Shown: positions 28,531 to 59,988, numbered from the stretch's first letter. The stretch is 64,000 bases of DNA from Protoeuglena noctilucae (GCA_958009085.1 OY253680.1:744001-808000), one strand, 5' to 3'. The notes: generated from the letters alone by a model not told the origin. Program-made: numbers and translations.

Positions 28531-28971
28531 CTCGGTCACGGCATGCAGGCTGAAGCTCGCGACGACAGCCGGCTCATCATGCGGCTAGCTCAGGAAGAGG
28601 ATTGAACACGATTAGCATGCCTTTCGCACAATTGCCGCGAGCATCAGCCGGGCTTTACCCTTCCAGCAAAGTGTTTCACGAGCATGCGCACAATGCACTC
28701 TTCCTTTCCATCCTTTGCTGACATTATCCATCCGTCCTTGAATGACAGCCAGCGACGGCCAGGTTCCTTAGGGGCTTCTTTCCGTTAAGTGCGTCCAGTC
28801 GGCGATTGCTGCTGCAGGCAGCGTTTGACCGAGACCACTTACAGAGCCACGGCTTCACAGAGTAGGAGTCAGAGGTGACTGGATAGGGGTGCGATCGTAC
28901 CGTGGCAGCCTGCGTGGCAGTCGGGAGCCCGCACTCTTGACTGCTGATGTTGAGACTCCCTTTCGAAGGCC

Positions 28972-30774
28972 ATGGCGACCAGCGCCGCCTGTTGTCGGTC
29001 GATGTCGGCTGAGATTTGCGATGTAAGTGTGCTCATGCCGCGAGTGCGCCGCTGCGCCCAGTGCGGGCGCGGGAAAGGCTTGCGTGCTCTGGACTGCACT
29101 ATGCGCTCGTGCGGCGACAGGCTCGCGAGGGGACACGCCGCGACGTGCTTGCGCGACGCACTTGCCTGCAATATGGCTGCCTGTCGTCCGCAGGGCAAGC
29201 GCACGCGACCCGTTGGGCTCGCAGCCATGGCGTCGACGTGCACCGCGGACCTGCCCGGACAGGGCGCGGCAATGGACGCAGGAGAGGAGCTGGGGGGAGG
29301 AGCGGTGAGGCTGACGGTTAGTCTCATGAAACGAAGCAGCGATTTCCGCAAAAGCAAGCGCAAACGTGTCGATGAGGGGTTGATGCAAGTGAGATATCTT
29401 ACTGTGCTTTCAGGGCTGGACCGAGGAACGGCTGCGGCATGCACTCGGGCTGCATGGAGCCGGGGGGTCAGGAGACCTCGACGTCGATCTGAAGGGTGCG
29501 AAGGTGGTGCTGGAAGAGCCGCTGGTGGTGGAGGCTGGCTGCGTGACACTGCGGAAGGGGACAGTGGTCGCGGGAAAGGCATGGGAGGGGCCGCGGCTGC
29601 TGAGGGTGGCAGGGGAGGGGACGCGTGTGGTGCTGGAGGGGGTGCGGCTGAGGGGCGGTGGGGTGCAGGTCTCGCAGCAAGCGCGGCTGGAGATGGCTCA
29701 GGGAGGGGTCGTTGGGTGTAGCAGTGACGGGGTGGTATGCGAGGGTGGCGGGGATGCGGAACTGATAGGGGTAGAGATCCTAGGGTGTCTGGGACAGGGA
29801 GCATGTGTGCAAGGAACAGGCAGCAAGCTAGTGATACAAGCAGGGAGCATTGAGCGGTGCAGGGAGAGTGGTGTGGTTTGCAACGATGGTGGCAAGGCAG
29901 AGATAACTGAGGCACAAATTGCAAAGTGTGGCAGGTGCGGGACGGTTGCGATGGGACCTGGCAGCACACTGGTGGTGCAGGGGGGGCACATTCAGGAGTG
30001 CCGGGGTGCTGGAGTGTTTTGCCACACTGGCGGCCAGGCGGTGGTAGCGGGGGTGGGAATCCAGAGAATTCAGATGGGGGCTTGCGTGGAGGGCACAGGC
30101 AGCAAGTTGGCAATAAGCAAGGGACACATGCAGCGTTGTGCAGGTGGTGGGGTGGAGTGCTCAGCTGGTGGCACTGCACGCCTTGAGGACTTCACCATCG
30201 AGGATTGTAGGGGTCCCGGCGTGGTGACGCATGGGGGCCGGGTCACTGTAGATGGAGTAGCGGTCGAGAAATGCCTCATGGGTGGCATGAAATGCAGTGT
30301 CGGGGGCCGCATTGATATCCATCGGTCAAACATTGTCGGCTGCCATGACAGCGGCATTTCCTGCATGCAAAGCGGCATAGTCGAGGTGTTGGACACAATT
30401 GTTACAGGATGCGGTGGCTGGGGTGTTTGCGTATCGCATGACACCAGCTTCCTGGTTATGACTGGGGGCCGCATTTCGGAGTGCAAGGCGGGGGGGCTTC
30501 TCAGCAGCAACAGGGGAAATGCAGGGCTGAGGAACGTGGAGGTCGTCGGATGCGGGGGGCCGGGGGTGGAGAGGAGCAGAGGTGGCACGGTGTTGATGAA
30601 AGACGTGAGGGTGGATGGGAACAAGCTGCAGGTGAGAGGGCAGTTGTGGCAGGGGTAGCAGGGGGTCTGCATTAGCAGTGGTATGCATGGCGATCAGGTG
30701 ACCTTCTCCGTGGTGACCTTCTCCCTGCGTGCGTGACGCAGGACGATACGAACCAAGAGACCCACCAAGAGTGA
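28972..30774 (+). CDS. Right-handed parallel beta-helix (PbH1/pectin-lyase-like) repeat protein
   Basis: The large exon 29414-30631 carries ~23-aa repeats of the type I.GC.G.GV.C..GG...L.... The 5' exons and the last exon (30742-30774) are inferred; the unspliced stop is at 30658. Confidence 0.75.
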
Positions 30775-50469: not shown

Positions 50470-50682
50470 CTCAGAGGAGTGGGGTCAGCAGCGTCGGCAG
50501 AGCAAGTAGCAAGTGTGCCAAGCAGCACGCAAAGCCGCTCACACTCACTGTTCGGCAAACCACGTGGGGCTGCGGCACGTCAGCTGACTTTGAATAGCTG
50601 TTGAGACGTTGTTATCACACGCAATTCGGCCGCGCCTTCCACCCGCTGCCATCGATGACCTGCACACGTCACGTTAGTGTCA

Positions 50683-52214
50683 TCACGCGCTCGCCCACTC
50701 CTTGAGCATCGACTGCAGCCCTGCCAGGGACGGCCTGCTCGAGATCGGGCCCAGGCACTGCCGCAGGATCTCCCTGCGAGGACGCGAGCCTTGCACAGGT
50801 CAGCAGCTCTTGCGTTGCGCTGCGGGTGTCAGTCAGTATGGCCGCAGCGGCACAGCTCGTCACCGCAGCTTGTCGTCAGGGACCTGGTCCAGGTTCATGT
50901 GCTGCAGCGTGCGGCCCATGGCGTGCTCGACCGCGACCATCGCCGACGGGGTGTCGGCGAATGGCTTTTTCCCAGTCGCCAGCTCCGCGAGGGTCGCAGC
51001 GACCGAGTACACGTCCCACCGCGGGTCTGGGAGGGCGACAGTAGGGGAAGAGGACAGGATGAGGTGTGGCAGTTTGTACAAGCATTGTCCGCCACATCAT
51101 GGATGCCCACACTCAAGAGTCACCTGCCCTGCACCCCGGACCGGCCCGGGTAGACAGCTGCTCCAGGCAGCTGTAGGCCAGCGTGAAAGCCAGAGTTGAC
51201 ATCACAGTCTTCTCCAGCACCTGCGAGGAGCTCAAGGCCATGGATATTGATAACCACAGCGTTGCTGGAAGCGCACTCTTGGCCATCACCACGGAACAGT
51301 GGCCGGGGTCTACATGTCACACCACCTGGCGCTCCCAGCATTGCGCCGACGCCCACACTCGCCTTGCTGCTCCCGAAGTCGCACAGCACCACCGTGCCGT
51401 CCCCCCGCACCAGGCAGTTCTCGGGCTTGATGTCGCAGTGCACGATGCCGCAGGCGTGCAGCTGCGCCAGGCTTGTGCAGATGTCCAGCGCCACCTTGGC
51501 CAGCTGCCGCATCTCCATGCCTTTGCCCCCGTTGTTGTCCAGCCACCGCCCCAGGGATGTCTGGCACAGCTCCATCACCAGGTACACCATCCCCTGCTGC
51601 TCCATGTACCCGTACACACGGCACACCGCGGGGCACTCCTTAGAGGCCAGCATGGACCTCCCCACCTCGCGCACAACCCGATCGCGGTAAGATCCCGCCA
51701 TTGGCAGCTCCTTCACCGCCACGTCGACGGGCTGCTCGCCTGGCCTCTGCAGCTTCGCGCAGCGCACGACGGCTCTGCCCTCGGAGCCTCCGATGCATGG
51801 CCCGATGTCGGCTATCCAGCTGGGGTCGAGGCGGCCGACGAGATCCAGCTCCTCCGCCTGCCTCGCCGTGCGCTGTTCCGCGTCACCCGCCGGCAGCGTC
51901 TTGAGCTTGTCGACGTACGCCTCGACGCCGTCCGGGCGCAGCGCCCGCATCTCTACCGTCGGCTCGTGAAGGTAGCAGCAACGCGGCTGGAACGCCCCGC
52001 CGCTGCTTGAATTCGTCCCTTCCGTGCCGAGGTTGTTCAGCAGGCACTTCCGGCACAGCACGCACCCGCACGGCAGCTGCTTGGGCCTGTGCTCCCCACC
52101 ATCATAGATGCTTCCGCATGACGTACACTCCTGCAGCGCCTGCCCACCCGCCCCTGCGATCGGAGAACCGTGCTCTGCACTCAGGCCCCGTCCGGGCTTT
52201 CTGTCGCCGCGCAT
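50683..52214 (-). CDS. KEG-like RING-kinase paralog A (non-RD)
   Basis: RING-like CTSC...LPCGCVLCRKC...CCYLH. The kinase has VAVKE, CPAVCRVYG, HCDIKPEN, DFGSSK| (GC donor 51362) and WDVYSVAATL. It ends RPSLAGLQSMLKEWASA*. Confidence 0.85.
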
Positions 52215-52863
52215 GCAGCCAGCAGTAGATGAGGATCAAGTCTGAGATTGAAAGACGAGCTTTTGGGGCCTGCGCACGCCCAGGACCCTCCCGGCGCGCG
52301 GATCTAGCCATGGCCTGCAAGCAGCCATGCGAAGCGAACCACGCGCCGGTCCGTGGCCCGGGTGGTCATCGCTTGCCTGATCCGGGTGCCATTCCTCTTC
52401 CTCAATGCTCCGGTAGGTCCAGCGAGGCTGAGGGCTCCCGGGACTGGCCCCTGCCCAGCAAGGCAGGTGCAGCCTCTGCGATGCGAACGACCCTGGCCCC
52501 GATGCCTCGCGCAGATGCACACTAGGCAAGACGATATGTCCACATCACGCACGGGCCGCACAGCTGTCAGGGCGTCCTTGCGATGGTCTGGCACCGCAGC
52601 GCGAGTCAGAAGAAAGCCAGTTCTCGCCCTGTGGTTCGCCAAACACACTTTGCTGCGATGTCAACGCATCGGACGCTAGCGACGCTGACAGGCAGCCCGG
52701 GATCGCGATCGCGGGCATTGCAGGGGAGCACCTGTTGTGACAGGTCAGGTCGCCTGTTCAGATGGACGGGTGCATGACGATGATTGTGTGGTCGAGAGCT
52801 GCGGGGGCCTCCCGTGCTCGAGATGCTGAGGGACCTATTCAAAATGCAGTTGTGGCAAACAGT

Positions 52864-52940: not shown

Positions 52941-54353
52941 TCACAGCGCTCCCATGCTCGATGCCCACTGCCTGACCTCCTCCAGCAGCTCCACCGCGGA
53001 CGGCGTCTGCTGCTGCGGCGTCTGCTGCGTGTCCTGCGCCAGGCACCGCAGCAGCACAGGCCTGCAAGCACTGGCAGCAGACATGAAGATGAGCAAAAGC
53101 AACCCAAGAGCTGCGTGCCTGGAACGTGACGCTTTGTAGAGACCCTCACCTGAGGCCGTCCGGGACCACGTCCAGGTGCATGTGCTCCAGCGTGCGGCCC
53201 CCGATGTGCTCCGTGGCGACCAGCGCTGGAGCCACCTTGTCGAAGGGCTGCCTCCCACTGGCCAGGTGCGTCATGGTTGCAGCCCACGAGTGGATGTCCC
53301 AAGCTTTCACTGCAAGCAGTGAAGAGGGGCCGGGCACTGTTGCACATCCGTGGCAGCTATCGCCGCCCCTCGCGGTCCCAGCGGGGTGCGGACTCACCGG
53401 CTCGGGTACGCCGGGCCTCCACGACCTTCAGCTGGCTGAGGCACGCGTAGGACGCCGTCGCGTACCATGTCGACCGCACGGAGTGATTCACGGACTGCGG
53501 CCAGTGTGCACGGATGTGTGAGGGTCTCTCCAAGGCACAGCCTCTGCGGCCCTGCTGCATGCGCAGTCAAAGCACTCGCCTTGCTGCCCCCGAAGTCCGC
53601 CAGGACCACGGTGCCGTCCGCCCGGACCAGGCAGTTGCCCGGCTTGATGTCGCAATGCACCACATCGCAGGCATGCAGCTGCGCCAGGCTGGTGCACAGG
53701 TCGACTGCGACCCGGGCCAGCTCCCCCTGAGGCAGCCCTCGTCCGCCCAGCTCTGCCAAGCGATCAGCCAATGACCGCTGGCAGCGCTCCATGACCATCA
53801 GGAGGGCGTCGTTCTGCTGAGTGTACCCATAGACGCGGCACACCCGAGAGCACCGCTGGCTGACCAGCGAAGCCATCGACACCTCGCGCCGCTCGCGTCG
53901 CCAGTCCTCTGATGTGCGCCTGTGGATGACCTTGACGGCGACCGGCACCTGTGCTCCGTTCACCAGGAGCGTCGCCTCGAAGATTGCCCCCGCACCTCCG
54001 TTTCCAATGCACTGCCCCAGTTCAGACAGCGCCCCCGAGGGCAGCTCCCCCAGGAACTGCACCTGCTCCTGGTGGGCGGCGTTGGGTGCTCCGGTCGGGA
54101 GCGTGTCGACAAAGGCGCCCACACCTTCCGAGCCGCGGCCTGCCAGGTCCGGCAGGGCCCCGTGGCACAGCATACACCTGGGGTCCTGCGCACTCTCCGA
54201 CAGGCTTATGCTGAGCAGCGTCGTGGCGCACGGCCGGCACGCGATGCATCCGCACGGCTGGCGCACGGTGGCGAAGGCGCCATCTTCTTCGAGCAGGCAC
54301 CCGCATACAGGGCACAGGGCCTCCTCCTCGGCCATGTTCACGGTCGCCGACAT
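52941..54353 (-). CDS. KEG-like RING-kinase paralog B (non-RD)
   Basis: CPVC...QPCGCIACRPC...CMLCH, IGNGGAGAI, VAVKV, HCDIKPGN, DFGGSK| (GC donor 53579) and WDIHSWAATM. It ends VRQWASSMGAL*. Confidence 0.85.
53617..53804 (-). repeat. Left arm of ~188-bp near-identical inverted repeat (inside kinase B)
   Basis: Its reverse complement matches 55463-55650 with ~10 mismatches by hand alignment, including a 74-bp exact core. Confidence 0.9.
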
Positions 54354-54889
54354 CTGATGCCTTGATTGAGCCTTCGATCACGTCGATCGCGCCCTGGTCG
54401 GCTCACTGCAGCCGGCGACGGACGATGTTGTGCTCTGAGTGGCCCGCGAGGTCGTCTCCGGGAGAAAAGCTAGCTCTCTTTGCGCGCGTGTCGCAGACAA
54501 CAGCGAGAAAAGGGGCAGTGTGGCCTCAGCGGCACAACTCGCCAGCGCAAAGCTGCACGCGGGTTGCCAGTGCTTCGGTTTGCCTGTTTGCCGTGTGCCG
54601 CTTGCACACGCCATCTGAGGAGCGCACGATGTGGCGTTGGCACCGATATATTTCTGCCGCGTGTCATCTTCTGCCCCAGATTCCCAGCGGAGCGCAAGCA
54701 GCGTCCTGCATGTTCTCGCAAACGCGCTTCCGATTGCGTTAAAAACGGCTTAGCTTCCCTCGGATTGTTGCTCAACGATTGTCAGCTTCGTCACTGGACT
54801 GCACGGGGTGGTGATCGATCGCTTTTGCAACGCGAAAGCACGGATCCAGCGCAATTTCATGCTTGTCCATTTCTCGCGATTGCAGGGCC

Positions 54890-56335
54890 ATGGCAGCGGC
54901 TGGGCAGGGCGCCGGAATGTACGGCGCTTTTTGCTACGTCTGCCTCTGGGAGTACACATGGCTCGTGCAGGAGCACGCGCCCGTGCAGCTGTCGTGCGGC
55001 TGCGTGGCATGCCGGCGCTGCGTGTGCTGGTGGCTCCGCGGGCAGGTCGGATGCCCGCAGCCCGAGTGCTGGAACGGCCACCCGATCGTGGGGATGGTCG
55101 CCACGACCGAGGCGGACGCCCTGACTGACACGCTGGCGATGCTCCCCGAGACAGGGCCGGCGGCGCCCGAGCAGCCGACCCACGCGGCCCCGCCGAGCGA
55201 GGCAGCGTTTTCCGCGGGCCGCCTGCCTCTGGAATTCCTGACAGTCACGGGAGAGTGTCTAGGCGTGGGCGGCGCAGGAACAGTGTATGGGGGCTTGCTG
55301 CAGCTCCTGGAGGGCACGAAGCTCCCGGTGGCGGTGAAGACAGACACGGCCCCCGAGCACGGTGGACGTCGCATGCGCCGCGAGATCGTCATTGCCATGC
55401 ATATCTCTCAGGCTTGCCCGCTGACGTGCCGGGTGTACGGCTACGTGGAGCAGGGCGACCAGCTCCTGATGGTCATGGAGCGCTGCCAGCGGTCATTGGC
55501 CGGTCGCTTGGCAGAGCTGGGTGGACGAGGGCTGCCTCAGGGGGAGCTGGCCCGGGTCGCAGTCGACCTGTGCACCAGCCTGGCGCAGCTGCATGCGTGT
55601 GGCGTGGTGCACTCCGACATCAAGCCGGGCAACTGCCTAGTCCGGGCGGATGAGCGCGGCACAGTCGTCCTGGCCGACTTCGGGGCGTGCAAGGCGAGAG
55701 GGGAGAGCGGACGGCGCGTGGCTCTGGCTGTGCATGCGTGCACCATGTGCGGCCGCGAGACAGAGATGCCCCAGTGCGTCTGCGCAGCGGAGCGACCGCA
55801 CGGCGTGGTCGACCATCTTCGCGACGCACTGCTACGCCTCGTACGAGCACTTGTCGGCCCAGCGCGGGCGGAGGCCAGGTGCGCACACAGCTCTGGACCC
55901 AGCAGCCCCCTGGGCTTTCAAGCTCATGCCAGGGGCAGCACACCACCTGGCCGTGGCGTCGTTCGCCGAGGCGGTCCTCTCCTTGTCCCACGCAGCGCTG
56001 GCCTGGGACATCTTCTCCATTGCAGCGACCCTGTGCCACCTGGCGACCGGCGTGCGGCCGTTCAGGGACGTGGCCCCCGCCACCATCACGGTGGAGCACG
56101 TGCAGGGCCGCGTGCTCGAGCACATGCGCCTGGGTGATGTCGCGGACCCGGCGCTCAGGTGCGTGGGGGACCCTGGCCGGCTGGAGGCGGGGCGGTCGCC
56201 CGTCCTTGGCAGGGGAGCAAGCGTTGCCGCCCTCGCAGGGCCATCCTCGCCCGGTCCCTCTCGTCGCATCCCGCGCAGCGCCCCACGGCGGACGAGCTGC
56301 TCCGCGACGTGGAGCAATGGGCCGCAAGCGAGTGA
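54890..56335 (+). CDS. KEG-like RING-kinase paralog C (non-RD), head-to-head with paralog B
   Basis: CYVC...LSCGCVACRRC...CWNGH, LGVGGAGTVY, VAVKT, HSDIKPGN, DFGACK| (GC donor 55694) and WDIFSIAATL. It ends RPTADELLRDVEQWAASE*. Confidence 0.85.
55463..55650 (+). repeat. Right arm of ~188-bp near-identical inverted repeat (inside kinase C)
   Basis: Matches the reverse complement of 53617-53804; the exact core is 55523-55596. Confidence 0.9.
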
Positions 56336-56544
56336 GGGGGGACGCTCCCGTCGCCTGAGGACATGCGCATGCATGCCGCGCGATCGCCGGCGGCTCCCAT
56401 GACCCACGACCCTTCGCCCGGGACAGGAGAGGCCGTGAAGTCCGGCGGCAGGCCCACCCTGGCATCTGAAAGACGACTGTGCAGTGGCGTTTTGCTGGCC
56501 TCTGGCAGGGGGGTCGGCTTGCATTCAAGTGGAAGGCAACCTGC

Positions 56545-56559
56545 AGAACGTTCTGGAAA
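56545..56559 (+). promoter_or_regulatory. Perfect heat-shock element (nGAAnnTTCnnGAAn)
   Basis: aGAAcgTTCtgGAAa lies ~107 bp upstream of the predicted ATG (56666) of the recombinase-bHLH gene. Confidence 0.5.
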
Positions 56560-56665
56560 CTGAATTTACGAAGGCAGATCTGTCTTTCGGGCGTTTCACC
56601 CGCCGACATAGGAGCTGTCGTGCAGTATCCTCCTGCAACCTGCGCCCTCTCCGATCCCCAGCAAG

Positions 56666-59598
56666 ATGGTCATTGAGACCATCTTAAGCGTGTTTTTAGG
56701 GGTTCATGCGATTCACGGGGACGGGGATGGCGGCTCGGGGACGGAGGACCCGCGCGCGCCGGGGCCTTCCTCGTCCGCTAGCCGGCAACAGCTCCGACGG
56801 CCACGAGAGCGGTCACGATCGGGCGAACGGGTTGAAGATGACTGCAACAAACGGTTCCGGTGGACTTCGGAGGCGTCCGTGTTCGACGTGGGCGATGTGG
56901 GCGATGTGGGTGAGGTCGACAGTTGGGCACCGGTGACGCCGTATCTGCACGCCCCGCACCTCGCGCCGCCAAGTGGGCCCTTTAACACCCGCAGAAATTG
57001 TTAATGACTCCCGCGATATCAACCAAGAGCCTCTCTGTGGGCCTGTCGAACTCGTTGACCTTGTGAGTCGCTGCTTGTTGTGTTGGACAGGCTCGGAAAG
57101 GGACGTATGGGGCGTCATAGATGGAGTGTTTGCTGCCCTGAGTAAGGAAAGGGTACAGGGAGGACGCAGGGAGGACGATGCTGTTGGCGCATGGGGTGAA
57201 AGCGGGGGCGGGGTCCAATGTACTCCCATTTACGCAAGGGTAATGCAGGTAGATAGTGACCTAAATTACAACTTCGTTCTTCTGGGCCGTAATATGCCGT
57301 CCCTGAATCACGCAGGATGACGAATTCCAAGATGAAGACCCGGATGATGAGGCTGGTGGCGGTCGCCGGACCACCATGGAGACGAGCGCCGGGTGCATCA
57401 TTGGTATGGCGCCACTTCTGCAGGAGTCGGTGGTGAGTGAAAGCTGGCACTGCAGGTGAACTGTCACGGCGTCAGCCCACTTGCCCCGCCCACTTGCCCC
57501 GGGCGCCCACCCCATGCCCGCCAAGCACCCTCCCCATGCTGTTTCTGCGCGAGGCCTGCACTGACGGTACACTGAGTAGTGAGGAACAGCGAGTAGGACG
57601 AAACAGCCGCCCCCTTCACAAATGTTCGCAGAAGGGGCAAACCAACTGTCAGAATTTTCTGTTTCCGGCCGCGAAAACCATGTTCGAAACCATCGGCCAG
57701 TCTAAACCAGACGACCCGGAGCACTTCCGACAGCTGCTCATGTCGGTGCGGCGGGCCAGGCCGAAGCCTGGCTTCGTGGACTTTGACACATTGTCCCGCA
57801 TCGTCAGGAGTGCCTCTTCCCCAATGGAGGCAAGGGCTTTGTTGATGGTGCACATGCTGCTTCCTGTGCGCATGGGGGAACTGTGGAATGCGCTGTTTTT
57901 CGTGGATGTCGTCAAATCCCGCAAGAAGGTGAACTATTTTCACCGCATGGGCTGTGAGGGACTGGGGGAGTTCGTTTTCTGGGTGTACAAGACCCGTGGC
58001 ATTGGCGTGCAGAAGTTGCCTGTCCCTGAAGAGCTCCGGCTCGTGTTGCTGAGCCTCCGCATGGATGATGAGGAAGACGGGGAGTTTGTGTTTGGCTCCT
58101 TCGAGACCCGTACCGCCTTCAACGCGCATGTCAAGGATGTGCTTGGTGCCCTAAACCCCGCCGTTCGCTACAACGTCCTTAGGCATGCAGTGGTCACCAA
58201 GCTCGCAACGCTGTGCACGACGTTTGCTGAGTTTGCACGCATTGCGGCATACATGTTGCACTTACCCTATTCCGCATGGTACTATTACTGTCATGTGGAT
58301 ATCGCGGCTCGGGTGGTCGGGGCACACGCGGGGGTCACGTTCTTGGGTGGGATTGGTAGGGGGCTAGGGGAGGGGGGCATTGGGGCTCAGCTGTCAAGGG
58401 AACTTGGGGTGCTGGGGAGCGGCGTGGAGTGGCTTGAGGAGCTGAGGTTATCGGTGGCCGTTGTGCAGGAGCCAGTGGAGGGAGGGGCGTGGCTGGGCAG
58501 CAGCGTTGCTGACTTGGCACTAGAGATGGAGGCGGGACCGGGCAGCGCACTGGAGGTGGGGACAGCACCAGGCGGCATGGCTGACTTGGCACTAGAGATG
58601 GAGGCGGGACCGGGCAGCGCACTGGAGGTGGGGACAGCACCAGGCGGCATGGCTGACCTGGCACTAGAGATGGAGGCCGGACTGGGCAGCGCAACGGAGG
58701 TGGGGGCAGCACCAGGCGGCCTGGCTGACCTGGCACTGGATGTAGAAGGAGGGCCAGTTGGCGTGGCAAAGGTTAGGGCAGGTGTGCGAGGGGTGCATGG
58801 TGTAAGCCGTCACGATGGGGGACCTAAGGATGGGAACCAAGGGGCCCCTCATACAAAGGCATTAAAAGAGAGGTATCGGAGGGACTGCATCAACAAGCGG
58901 TGCTCTGAGCTGGCTCAGGTGAGGGCTGCGCGATGGCTTGGTGCCACCCATTTGCACGTACAACACAGCACCTCTGAGGCGCCCACCCCAGCCATTTCGC
59001 AGTTGATCTATGCCGGCGAGAAGCCCAAGACGGACAAGCTTTCAATTCTGAGGGACACTGTCAGGGTGGTGAAGCAGATGCGCGTGGCATGTGGGGGAGG
59101 GCCTGTTGGTGTGGCGCAAGTAGGGGCGGGTGGGGGAGGGCCTGTCGGTGTGGCGCAAGTAGAGGCGGGTGGGGGAGGGCCTGTCGGTGTGGTGCAGGGG
59201 CCAGGCGAGGCGCAGCTTGGGGATGGTGGGGAGGGGGCAAGCGGCGATGACGGGGAACAGGACGGGAAGCGGGAGGCTGCTCATAAGAAGGCACTGAGAG
59301 AGAAGCATCGGAGGTGCCGCATCAACGAGCGGTTTTCTGAGCTGGCTCAGGTGAGGGCTGCATCACAAGGGTGTCCCCCGGCAGGTAGAGCCCTTGTGAT
59401 GCTTGCACCAGCGGCCAATGCCACCCATGTAGGAACTCTCATGCTTGCAAAGACTCTGAGGCGCCCACCCCAGCCATTTCGCAGTTGATCTATGCCGACG
59501 AGGAGCACAGCACGGACAAGCTTTCCATTTTGGTGGACACCATTAAGCTGATCAAGCACAGGCACACGTTCTTGAGCCGGATGGTGGCCCGGCCATAG
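56666..59598 (+). CDS. Tyrosine recombinase - repeat - bHLH - repeat - bHLH fusion protein (~780 aa, spliced)
   Basis: Exons 56666-56909, 56995-57239, 57316-57432, 57632-58918, 59003-59350 and 59485-59598 join in frame through GT-AG introns. YR motifs: LPVRMGEL, GEFVFWVYKT, NVLRHAVVT, AAYMLHLPYSAWYYY. bHLH1: KALKERYRRDCINKRCSELAQ|LIYAGEKPKTDKLSILRDTVRVVKQMR. bHLH2: KALREKHRRCRINERFSELAQ|LIYADEEHSTDKLSILVDTIKLIK. Confidence 0.8.
57760..58300 (+). mobile_element. Tyrosine-recombinase catalytic domain, probably derived from a mobile element or virus
   Basis: Catalytic set: R (57869), K (57989), N-x-x-R (R 58181), H (58259) and Y at +9 (58286). The domain is intronless and visibly lower in GC than neighbouring housekeeping exons. 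No element ends were identified. Confidence 0.65.
58508..58745 (+). repeat. 72-bp coding tandem repeat x~3.3 (ADLALEMEAGPGSALEVGTAPGGM)
   Basis: Units start at 58508, 58580, 58652 and 58724; the first two are identical. Confidence 0.95.
59091..59197 (+). repeat. 39-bp coding tandem repeat x~3 (GGGPVGVAQVGAG)
   Basis: Units start at 59091, 59130 and 59169; a diverged copy lies at ~58748, before bHLH1. Confidence 0.9.
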
Positions 59599-59988
59599 CA
59601 AGGTAAGGACGCGTGGGGTTGGGAAGGCGCAGTTCGGGAGGCCCTGCCCGCACTCAAGCGCGGCGAGGTTGCTCCAGGTGACCAGCCTGGGGTCGAGCAC
59701 GCGCCATTTCGACAGTTTTGCGATGACATGGCCCCGGGAGGTCCCCTGGGCCGTTGGAGCGGCCTCGACGACGCGATGCGATCCCCGGATCGCAATGGCC
59801 GCCCCCGCCCCAGCCGGGCCTCGGGGCGCCACGTCCTGGCCTCGAGTCTTTGCGACGCTCCCAGCGCATCCACGCGGAGGCTCTCGGGGTCGTGAGACGC
59901 CGCACTGACGCTCAACCGATCGCCTACCCACCCTGCCGCGTCCTGTGTGCCCGTGCCCCCGCAGGCCCTCGTCGGCGAGGCTTGAGGA

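Follow-up and report, generated by a model that had tools for sequence, protein, structure and literature searches.

Probable interlocus gene conversion between head-to-head RING-kinase genes beside a candidate tyrosine recombinase-bHLH gene in Protoeuglena noctilucae

The window analysed in this study is a 64,000-nucleotide stretch of Protoeuglena noctilucae DNA (G000:C13:744001-808000) from an assembly of 26.3 Mb in 27 contigs. GC content is about 64% and introns are short. The presence of a Staygreen-family gene, together with sequencing runs of marine origin, suggests a marine green alga. A cluster composed of three RING-kinase genes (A, B and C) and a recombinase-like gene is flanked by a COG2 gene and a cation-efflux gene. 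Kinases B and C are oriented head to head, and each carries one arm of an inverted repeat inside its first exon. The features are as follows, with positions counted from the first letter of the window.

50680..52214, minus strand: RING-kinase A, the third RING-kinase family member of the cluster
52941..54353, minus strand: RING-kinase B, 383 aa, four exons (54353-53580, 53494-53398, 53309-53150, 53061-52941)
53617..53804, minus strand: left arm, inside exon 1 of kinase B, coding for LLMVME...RAD (hinge, helices D-E and catalytic loop)
53671..53744, minus strand: left copy of the exact core, 74 bp, the longest exact run between the arms
53805..55462, no strand: spacer, 1658 bp, comprising the divergent promoter region and, from each of the two genes, the parts that code for RING and N-lobe
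54890..56335, plus strand: RING-kinase C, 384 aa, four exons (54890-55693, 55788-55878, 55996-56158, 56239-56335), with Pfam support
55463..55650, plus strand: right arm, inside exon 1 of kinase C, stopping at a 6-bp insertion present only in C
55523..55596, plus strand: right copy of the exact core, 74 bp
56546..56558, no strand: GAA-nn-TTC-nn-GAA, a candidate heat-shock-element-like motif in the 5' leader of the recombinase-like gene, the only match of this pattern in the window
56666..59598 (wider 56487-59603), plus strand: recombinase-like gene, spliced, 725 aa, six exons

The kinase B model is identical to a spliced protein in the public collection (P0012), and all three of its introns were seen in one RNA contig, the first being of the GC-AG type. 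A domain search with B found Pkinase and a weak RING match (E 1.4). For kinase C, intron 2 was seen in RNA, intron 3 was indicated in RNA and intron 1 was inferred. RNA cover of this gene is thin, patchy and slightly higher at the 3' end; a chimeric-transcript reading of that cover was dropped because contig depth cannot rank the parts of a gene. The first kinase intron (53579-53495 in B, 55694-55787 in C and the equivalent in A) begins with a GC donor in several family members, namely the three kinases of this cluster and a further pair located on contigs C3 and C14. The RING-kinase family has at least 14 members, clustered on contigs C13, C3, C14, C22 and C18, and recent segmental duplicates are present. 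Kinase A (window 50680-52711) has a copy 68 kb away (G000:C13:726894-728920) that is 94.5% identical and carries an in-frame TAG; birth and death of genes in this family are rapid. The ends of the duplicated kinase units had no obvious common motif, and the flanks of the recombinase gene gave no match at any other kinase locus compared.

Aligned in register (53617 with 55650), the arms span 188 bp with exactly 10 mismatches (53628, 53653, 53655, 53664, 53665, 53667, 53670, 53745, 53764 and 53766), which agrees with the near-identical inverted arms of about 188 bp and about 10 mismatches reported in a preliminary description of this DNA. In gene direction, three mismatches fall in the first 134 bp, as had been counted there, and seven in the last 54 bp (Fisher p = 0.007, for a split picked after seeing the data). 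The 74-bp exact core of that description was likewise located, at 53671-53744 and 55523-55596. Outside the arm, the DNA identity of B and C is 46% in the RING-linker, 53% in the N-lobe and 60% in the spliced C-terminal part, in line with the strong divergence claimed for these regions. Kinase A has no identity island in common with B or C and is 67% identical in the arm segment. The spacer, described earlier as 1.66 kb with both RINGs, both N-lobes and a shared promoter, has these contents and includes 536 bp between the two ATGs (54353 and 54890). A modelled crossover between the arms would invert the spacer and swap the N-terminal modules with both products in frame (376 and 391 aa), as had been proposed, and the ATG of the recombinase-like gene lies 1016 bp past the right arm, where about 1 kb had been stated.

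Both arms are real sequence. Of 23 listed runs, 12 of which contain the stretch, four were compared with the reference, three of these four being of DNA type. In all three DNA-type runs, the contigs end 30 bp into the exact stretches, and those on either side show the B-specific and C-specific alleles with no other letters. The assembly may itself derive from one of the three, and the runs all seem to represent a single genotype. The spacer lies on a single contig of reference sequence (53775-55492) in the three DNA runs, and an RNA contig covers the whole B arm without a difference. Collapse during assembly or polishing is a known way for near-identical islands to arise, and it had been named earlier as a possible source of this one. 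It now has a negligible probability, since distinct B and C alleles reach into both arms in three runs, even if these are possibly not independent of the assembly; moreover, exact B and C proteins occur on 12 and 15 public contigs, respectively.

The four-fold silent sites of B and C differ at 4 of 37 positions within the arm and at 30 of 46 outside it (p = 4e-7). Silent sites were thus homogenised together with the coding ones, which protein-level selection cannot explain, and the gap points to a recent transfer of DNA. The island was also significant by permutation (p = 0.0002), a significance inflated by exon/intron and constraint differences because the test assumes a uniform mismatch rate. 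In a window ranking of 14 members and 91 pairs, which considered the best 25 of the 91 by exact run, the best 188-column window of B/C reached 95% and was the highest among pairs below 90% overall, the next such pair reaching 80%. It is most improbable that the block owes its identity to nothing but selection or to a partial duplication of recent date. The block is admittedly the most conserved part of the family, with 57-73% DNA identity between B and nine other members. However, in the same block seven other diverged pairs involving B or C differ at 9 of 18 to 15 of 25 silent sites, and the selection-alone reading is largely refuted by this test; a fresh duplication would not be expected to leave old paralogous sequence in register on both flanks, as is found here.

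Phylogenetic trees of the segments agree with a transfer confined to the arm. They were built from 11 modelled members, of which the whole 5' tree used 7; the set excluded I18 and A2 and included F3c despite a doubtful automatic exon model (that of I18 is likewise doubtful), and H22p and a shortened copy at C13:743.6k were outside the modelled set. In the arm tree, B and C are sisters on very short branches (bootstrap 91 for nucleotides and 65 for amino acids), whereas the 5' and C-terminal trees have long branches and no supported pairing of the two. The trees lean to B as the donor with bootstrap values below 70 at the key nodes, so that transfer was probably from B to C. B and C each hold private, derived alleles inside the arm, including a C-to-S change in the catalytic loop of kinase C (HSD), and homogenisation is therefore not continuous; the 10 differences between the arms also argue against constant homogenisation. 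In the trees, the N-terminal and C-terminal halves of kinase C tend to group with one and the same outside gene, located on C22 (bootstrap 44-84), which weakly suggests that no fixed B/C module swap took place in the past.

Identity islands are not restricted to B and C. Among seven duplicate pairs (B/C included) from regions that were picked, non-randomly, for holding family members, six had a significant best window or exact run and one had neither. An inverted duplicate 30 kb apart (window 28875-29235 versus G000:C13:742796-743156) shares exact stretches of 118, 66 and 62 bp, all within 360 bp, against a background of about 81%. This conversion-like tract covers the 5' end of a beta-helix gene, and the duplicate also holds the N-terminal part of kinase D. 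Tandem kinases on C3 have a 73-bp exact run in the last exon against a 77% background. In the C3/C14 kinase pair (loci L016 and L017), the homologue of the B/C arm (G000:C3:108531-108718) contains two mismatches versus 8-11% outside it; the left boundary falls at the same base as in B/C and the right boundary 2 nt further on. Silent sites of this pair differ at 0 of 39 positions in the tract and at 13 of 109 outside (p = 0.02), and the probability of two or fewer mismatches is 0.003 after scaling for the general conservation of the block. The tract boundaries fall in two loops that are variable across the family, one of them with an indel in C. A search around the C3/C14 pairs turned up no relative of the recombinase-like domain. 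Patches of this kind, in duplicate pairs that have no adjacent recombinase, are accordingly not special to the recombinase neighbourhood. The convergent kinase pair on C22 showed only a match of 33 bp at 82%. Mosaic public-protein forms of A/A2 and of the C3/C14 pair were not counted as conversion, as they may result from assembly mixing.

Evidence of an inverted spacer was sought in contigs, RNA and public proteins. No strand-changing joint occurred among 28 of 77 contig pieces from the four runs. An RNA contig of 1361 nt joins the N-terminal half of B to B's own C-terminal exons with no difference, a contig not being equivalent to a single molecule. A public protein search with B gave six clusters at E<=1e-40, namely exact B, exact C, three other paralogs and one truncated B; none of these six hits (8000 candidates scored, 175-559 aa) joined the N-terminal half of one kinase to the C-terminal half of the other in either combination. 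The chimeric B/C products anticipated earlier were therefore absent from the RNA contig and from these hits. In public assemblies, B occurred on 12 contigs and in one spliced form and C on 12 + 3 contigs, all in the reference pairing, whereas near-identical pairs showed 17 and 4 + 5 public variants; these assemblies are probably not independent genotypes, and contigs neither resolve phase across the 74-bp core nor reveal rare forms. Such data disfavour a near-even mix of orientations, and rare flipping would be invisible to them. Two candidates were set aside: P0004, the first 108 aa of B with an unmapped tail on one contig, is likely an artefact, and a contig of depth 3.8 in one run that joins 57771 to 53533 was treated as foreign DNA because its two matches are shorter than 30 bp. 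Metagenome contigs gave 0 matches to the arm protein and to the exact arm pattern, in a collection where records of this genome itself may be excluded.

These results bear on a homology-driven polymorphism in which host repair recombines the arms, so that both orientations and chimeric kinases exist and the recombinase-like gene is uninvolved. The geometry permits it and the frames stay open; it would be the same process as conversion, with crossover outcomes, and a yeast region is described as inverting by this route (passages of PMC9731477). We nevertheless regard it as unlikely. The arm is 188 bp at 95% identity compared with 4.2 kb at 97.6% for the yeast repeat, which according to the same passages was itself unflipped in about 53,800 mitoses, no chimera was present among the six hits at E<=1e-40, and the common C22 relative of the two halves of kinase C speaks weakly against a past fixed swap.

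The neighbouring gene has all five coding-region introns seen in RNA contigs. In its 725-aa product, the N-terminal part is acidic and is followed by what is likely the catalytic domain of a tyrosine recombinase (about 57680-58340), then by a repeat linker and a pair of bHLH domains. The catalytic consensus of tyrosine recombinases is R-K-H-R-H/W-Y, and motif reading places R223, K263, N324-x-x-R327, H353 and Y362 at the expected spacing, N324 standing at the H of HxxR. On this reading, the conserved residues ahead of the catalytic domain number only about 45, fewer than a usual core-binding domain would need. Atlas features assign the domain to phage-integrase clusters at 0.97. No Pfam or PHROG recombinase match was obtained for the protein, its match to XerA was weak (E=1.4), and the PF00589 profile had no match in this genome. 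Two AlphaFold models had pLDDT of 38-39, and fold comparisons from them carry no information. The earlier identification of the gene as a tyrosine recombinase is in keeping with its features and with the apparently retained R, K, R, H and Y, and was not confirmed by the profile searches or by fold prediction; the domain is likely of the tyrosine-recombinase kind and the protein a candidate enzyme.

The gene is single copy in DNA, and among 1.84 billion representatives the only matches found were itself and one paralog on C1 (G000:C1:925.4k). Relatives of the domain were found neither in viral contigs nor in phage records. The C1 paralog is distant, has an in-frame stop and lacks the catalytic R, and neither a RING-kinase pair nor a long inverted repeat was found around it. 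Some 4 kb upstream, this paralog is preceded by a protein-kinase gene of the conventional type (L056:67-1389); by tblastn it is not of the RING-kinase family, and its position is probably a coincidence. The tandem repeats of the linker in the gene studied here (72 bp, 58500-58755; 39 bp, 59086-59202) vary in copy number among public assemblies (646-683 aa), as real variation or through assembly collapse. RNA contigs have loose ends from 59603 to about 59965, that is, from just past the recombinase-bHLH stop to just before the cation-efflux start, and read-through or a two-gene transcript is possible. The gene appears closer to a mobile-element recombinase that is being domesticated or is decaying than to a dedicated invertase. 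The fusion may be a new domestication of such a recombinase and may be the more unusual object of the locus; no paper on it, or on this locus, was found in the open-licence literature.

The preliminary description had proposed an invertible cassette driven by this enzyme. In such a shufflon-like arrangement, the recombinase-bHLH protein would bind in or near the arms and invert the spacer, perhaps under stress, thereby swapping RING/N-lobe modules; the long arm would then represent co-conversion around a short crossover site. The gene adjoins an arm at 1016 bp, is spliced in RNA and has recombinase-like features with R, K, R, H and Y apparently kept, and a Chlamydomonas Crypton recombinase is tied to inversions in the text available of PMC9977147. 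The search for a palindromic lox/FRT-like site in the arms gave at best 8 of 13, equalled or beaten in 317 of 340 window tiles. Shufflon sites are described as asymmetric in parts of PMC11852207, so a missing palindrome is not decisive, and an asymmetric sfx-like site would be invisible inside two long similar arms. The proposal is nevertheless highly improbable, and the cassette reading was not borne out. No reads, contigs or proteins of the inverted form were found in the data described above, the arms differ at 10 positions, and the same segment is homogenised in the C3/C14 pair away from the recombinase-like gene. The residues before the catalytic domain are too few for the usual core-binding domain, N stands at the H of HxxR, and, according to sections of PMC3212892, a recombinase domain joined to a DNA-binding domain has often been domesticated as a regulator. 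A broader version, in which the recombinase with its two bHLH domains would both exchange a defined cassette, from the hinge to the catalytic loop, between paralogs of the RING-kinase family and flip the B/C spacer on cue, with the C3/C14 boundaries as its footprint in trans, is very unlikely.

We conclude, with a probability of roughly 80%, that the arms are an interlocus (ectopic, non-allelic) gene-conversion tract and that inversion is at most a by-product. The description above had offered recent gene conversion as the more conservative alternative, and this was upheld by the silent sites (4/37 versus 30/46), by B and C being sisters only in the arm and by the patches in other pairs. Local identity is far above that of the flanks, silent sites included. 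As paralogs, B and C are old, their silent sites being close to saturation, yet they have in common a sharply bounded block of few silent differences, which extends from one variable loop to another and terminates at an indel. Homologous repair would have copied the best-conserved kinase block into an inverted neighbour 1.7 kb away, making a dedicated recombinase needless. Strand invasion may have started in the catalytic-loop region, where the diverged paralogs are still 70-80% alike, and the tract may have ended at flanking mismatch clusters. At least two rounds are likely, of which the older would have covered the 188 bp and the more recent the first 134 bp. The stopping of conversion tracts by clustered mismatches would also give the boundary coincidence of the two pairs in an enzyme-free manner. 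As a rare by-product, a crossover would invert the spacer and give rise to N/C chimeras in frame. Gene conversion is uncommon between sequences that differ by about 25-30%. Against conversion, the only apparently intact recombinase-like gene of the genome lies 1 kb from an arm, a placement unlikely in 26 Mb unless both gather in a duplication-rich region, and the agreement of tract boundaries between two pairs may reflect targeting.

As a conversion tract, the locus provides a small and clean case of a fast-evolving kinase family that traded its catalytic core between diverged copies, twice and in the same block. Conversion would have left a 188-bp inverted repeat, at which a rare crossover would yield in-frame chimeric kinases. 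If the recombinase-bHLH protein did drive inversion, the locus would be a nuclear switch of a eukaryote in which an enzyme programmes the shuffling of proteins, producing chimeric RING-kinases in an alga; no example of such a switch was found in the open-licence literature.

Several known systems resemble the locus in part. Like the R64 shufflon (Rci/sfx), it has a tyrosine-recombinase-like gene adjoining inverted repeats in coding sequence, where inversion would swap protein ends. A shufflon is defined in the text consulted (PMC11852207) by a short site, two isomers and enzyme dependence, with sfx sites of 31 bp in seven occurrences, whereas B/C has two long degenerate arms, no site or inverted isomer was found, and the enzyme is a spliced bHLH fusion. 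The neighbouring gene resembles Cryptons and Crypton-derived genes in combining an intron-bearing eukaryotic tyrosine-recombinase domain with a C-terminal DNA-binding domain, as outlined in portions of PMC3212892 and PMC9977147. It differs in having bHLH in place of GCR1_C and in being single copy, with no termini found, no Pfam match and no relative outside this genome. Inversions linked to Cryptons in Chlamydomonas involve short target motifs at element ends (excerpts of PMC9977147), unlike the long coding arms of B/C. The mating-type flip/flop of Ogataea polymorpha is likewise a nuclear inversion between inverted repeats in a eukaryote; it is reported (PMC5720833, PMC4238957) to be programmed and induced, to cover a 19-kb region and to be documented in both orientations, none of which is shown for B/C. 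In C. elegans hsp16/hsp70, gene conversion between adjacent inverted paralogs (passages of PMC3966223) produced, as it probably did here, a short near-identical tract in neighbouring opposite-strand genes with no dedicated enzyme. The B/C background, in contrast, is strongly diverged (about 50-60% outside the arm), and a second pair, located on other contigs, is homogenised over the same protein block. On Saccharomyces chromosome XIV, the portions of PMC9731477 seen describe inverted, homogenised copies of 4.2 kb that contain whole genes. When conversion there is accompanied by crossover, inversion of the spacer is an occasional by-product; the region was stable during about 53,800 mitoses, and both of its orientations are documented. 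In B/C, the repeat is 188 bp inside exons, a flip would produce chimeric proteins, and one orientation is seen. Judged by this layout, the Saccharomyces flip/flop region is the closest structural analogue of the B/C arms, which are a real feature with, most likely, an ordinary and known mechanism.
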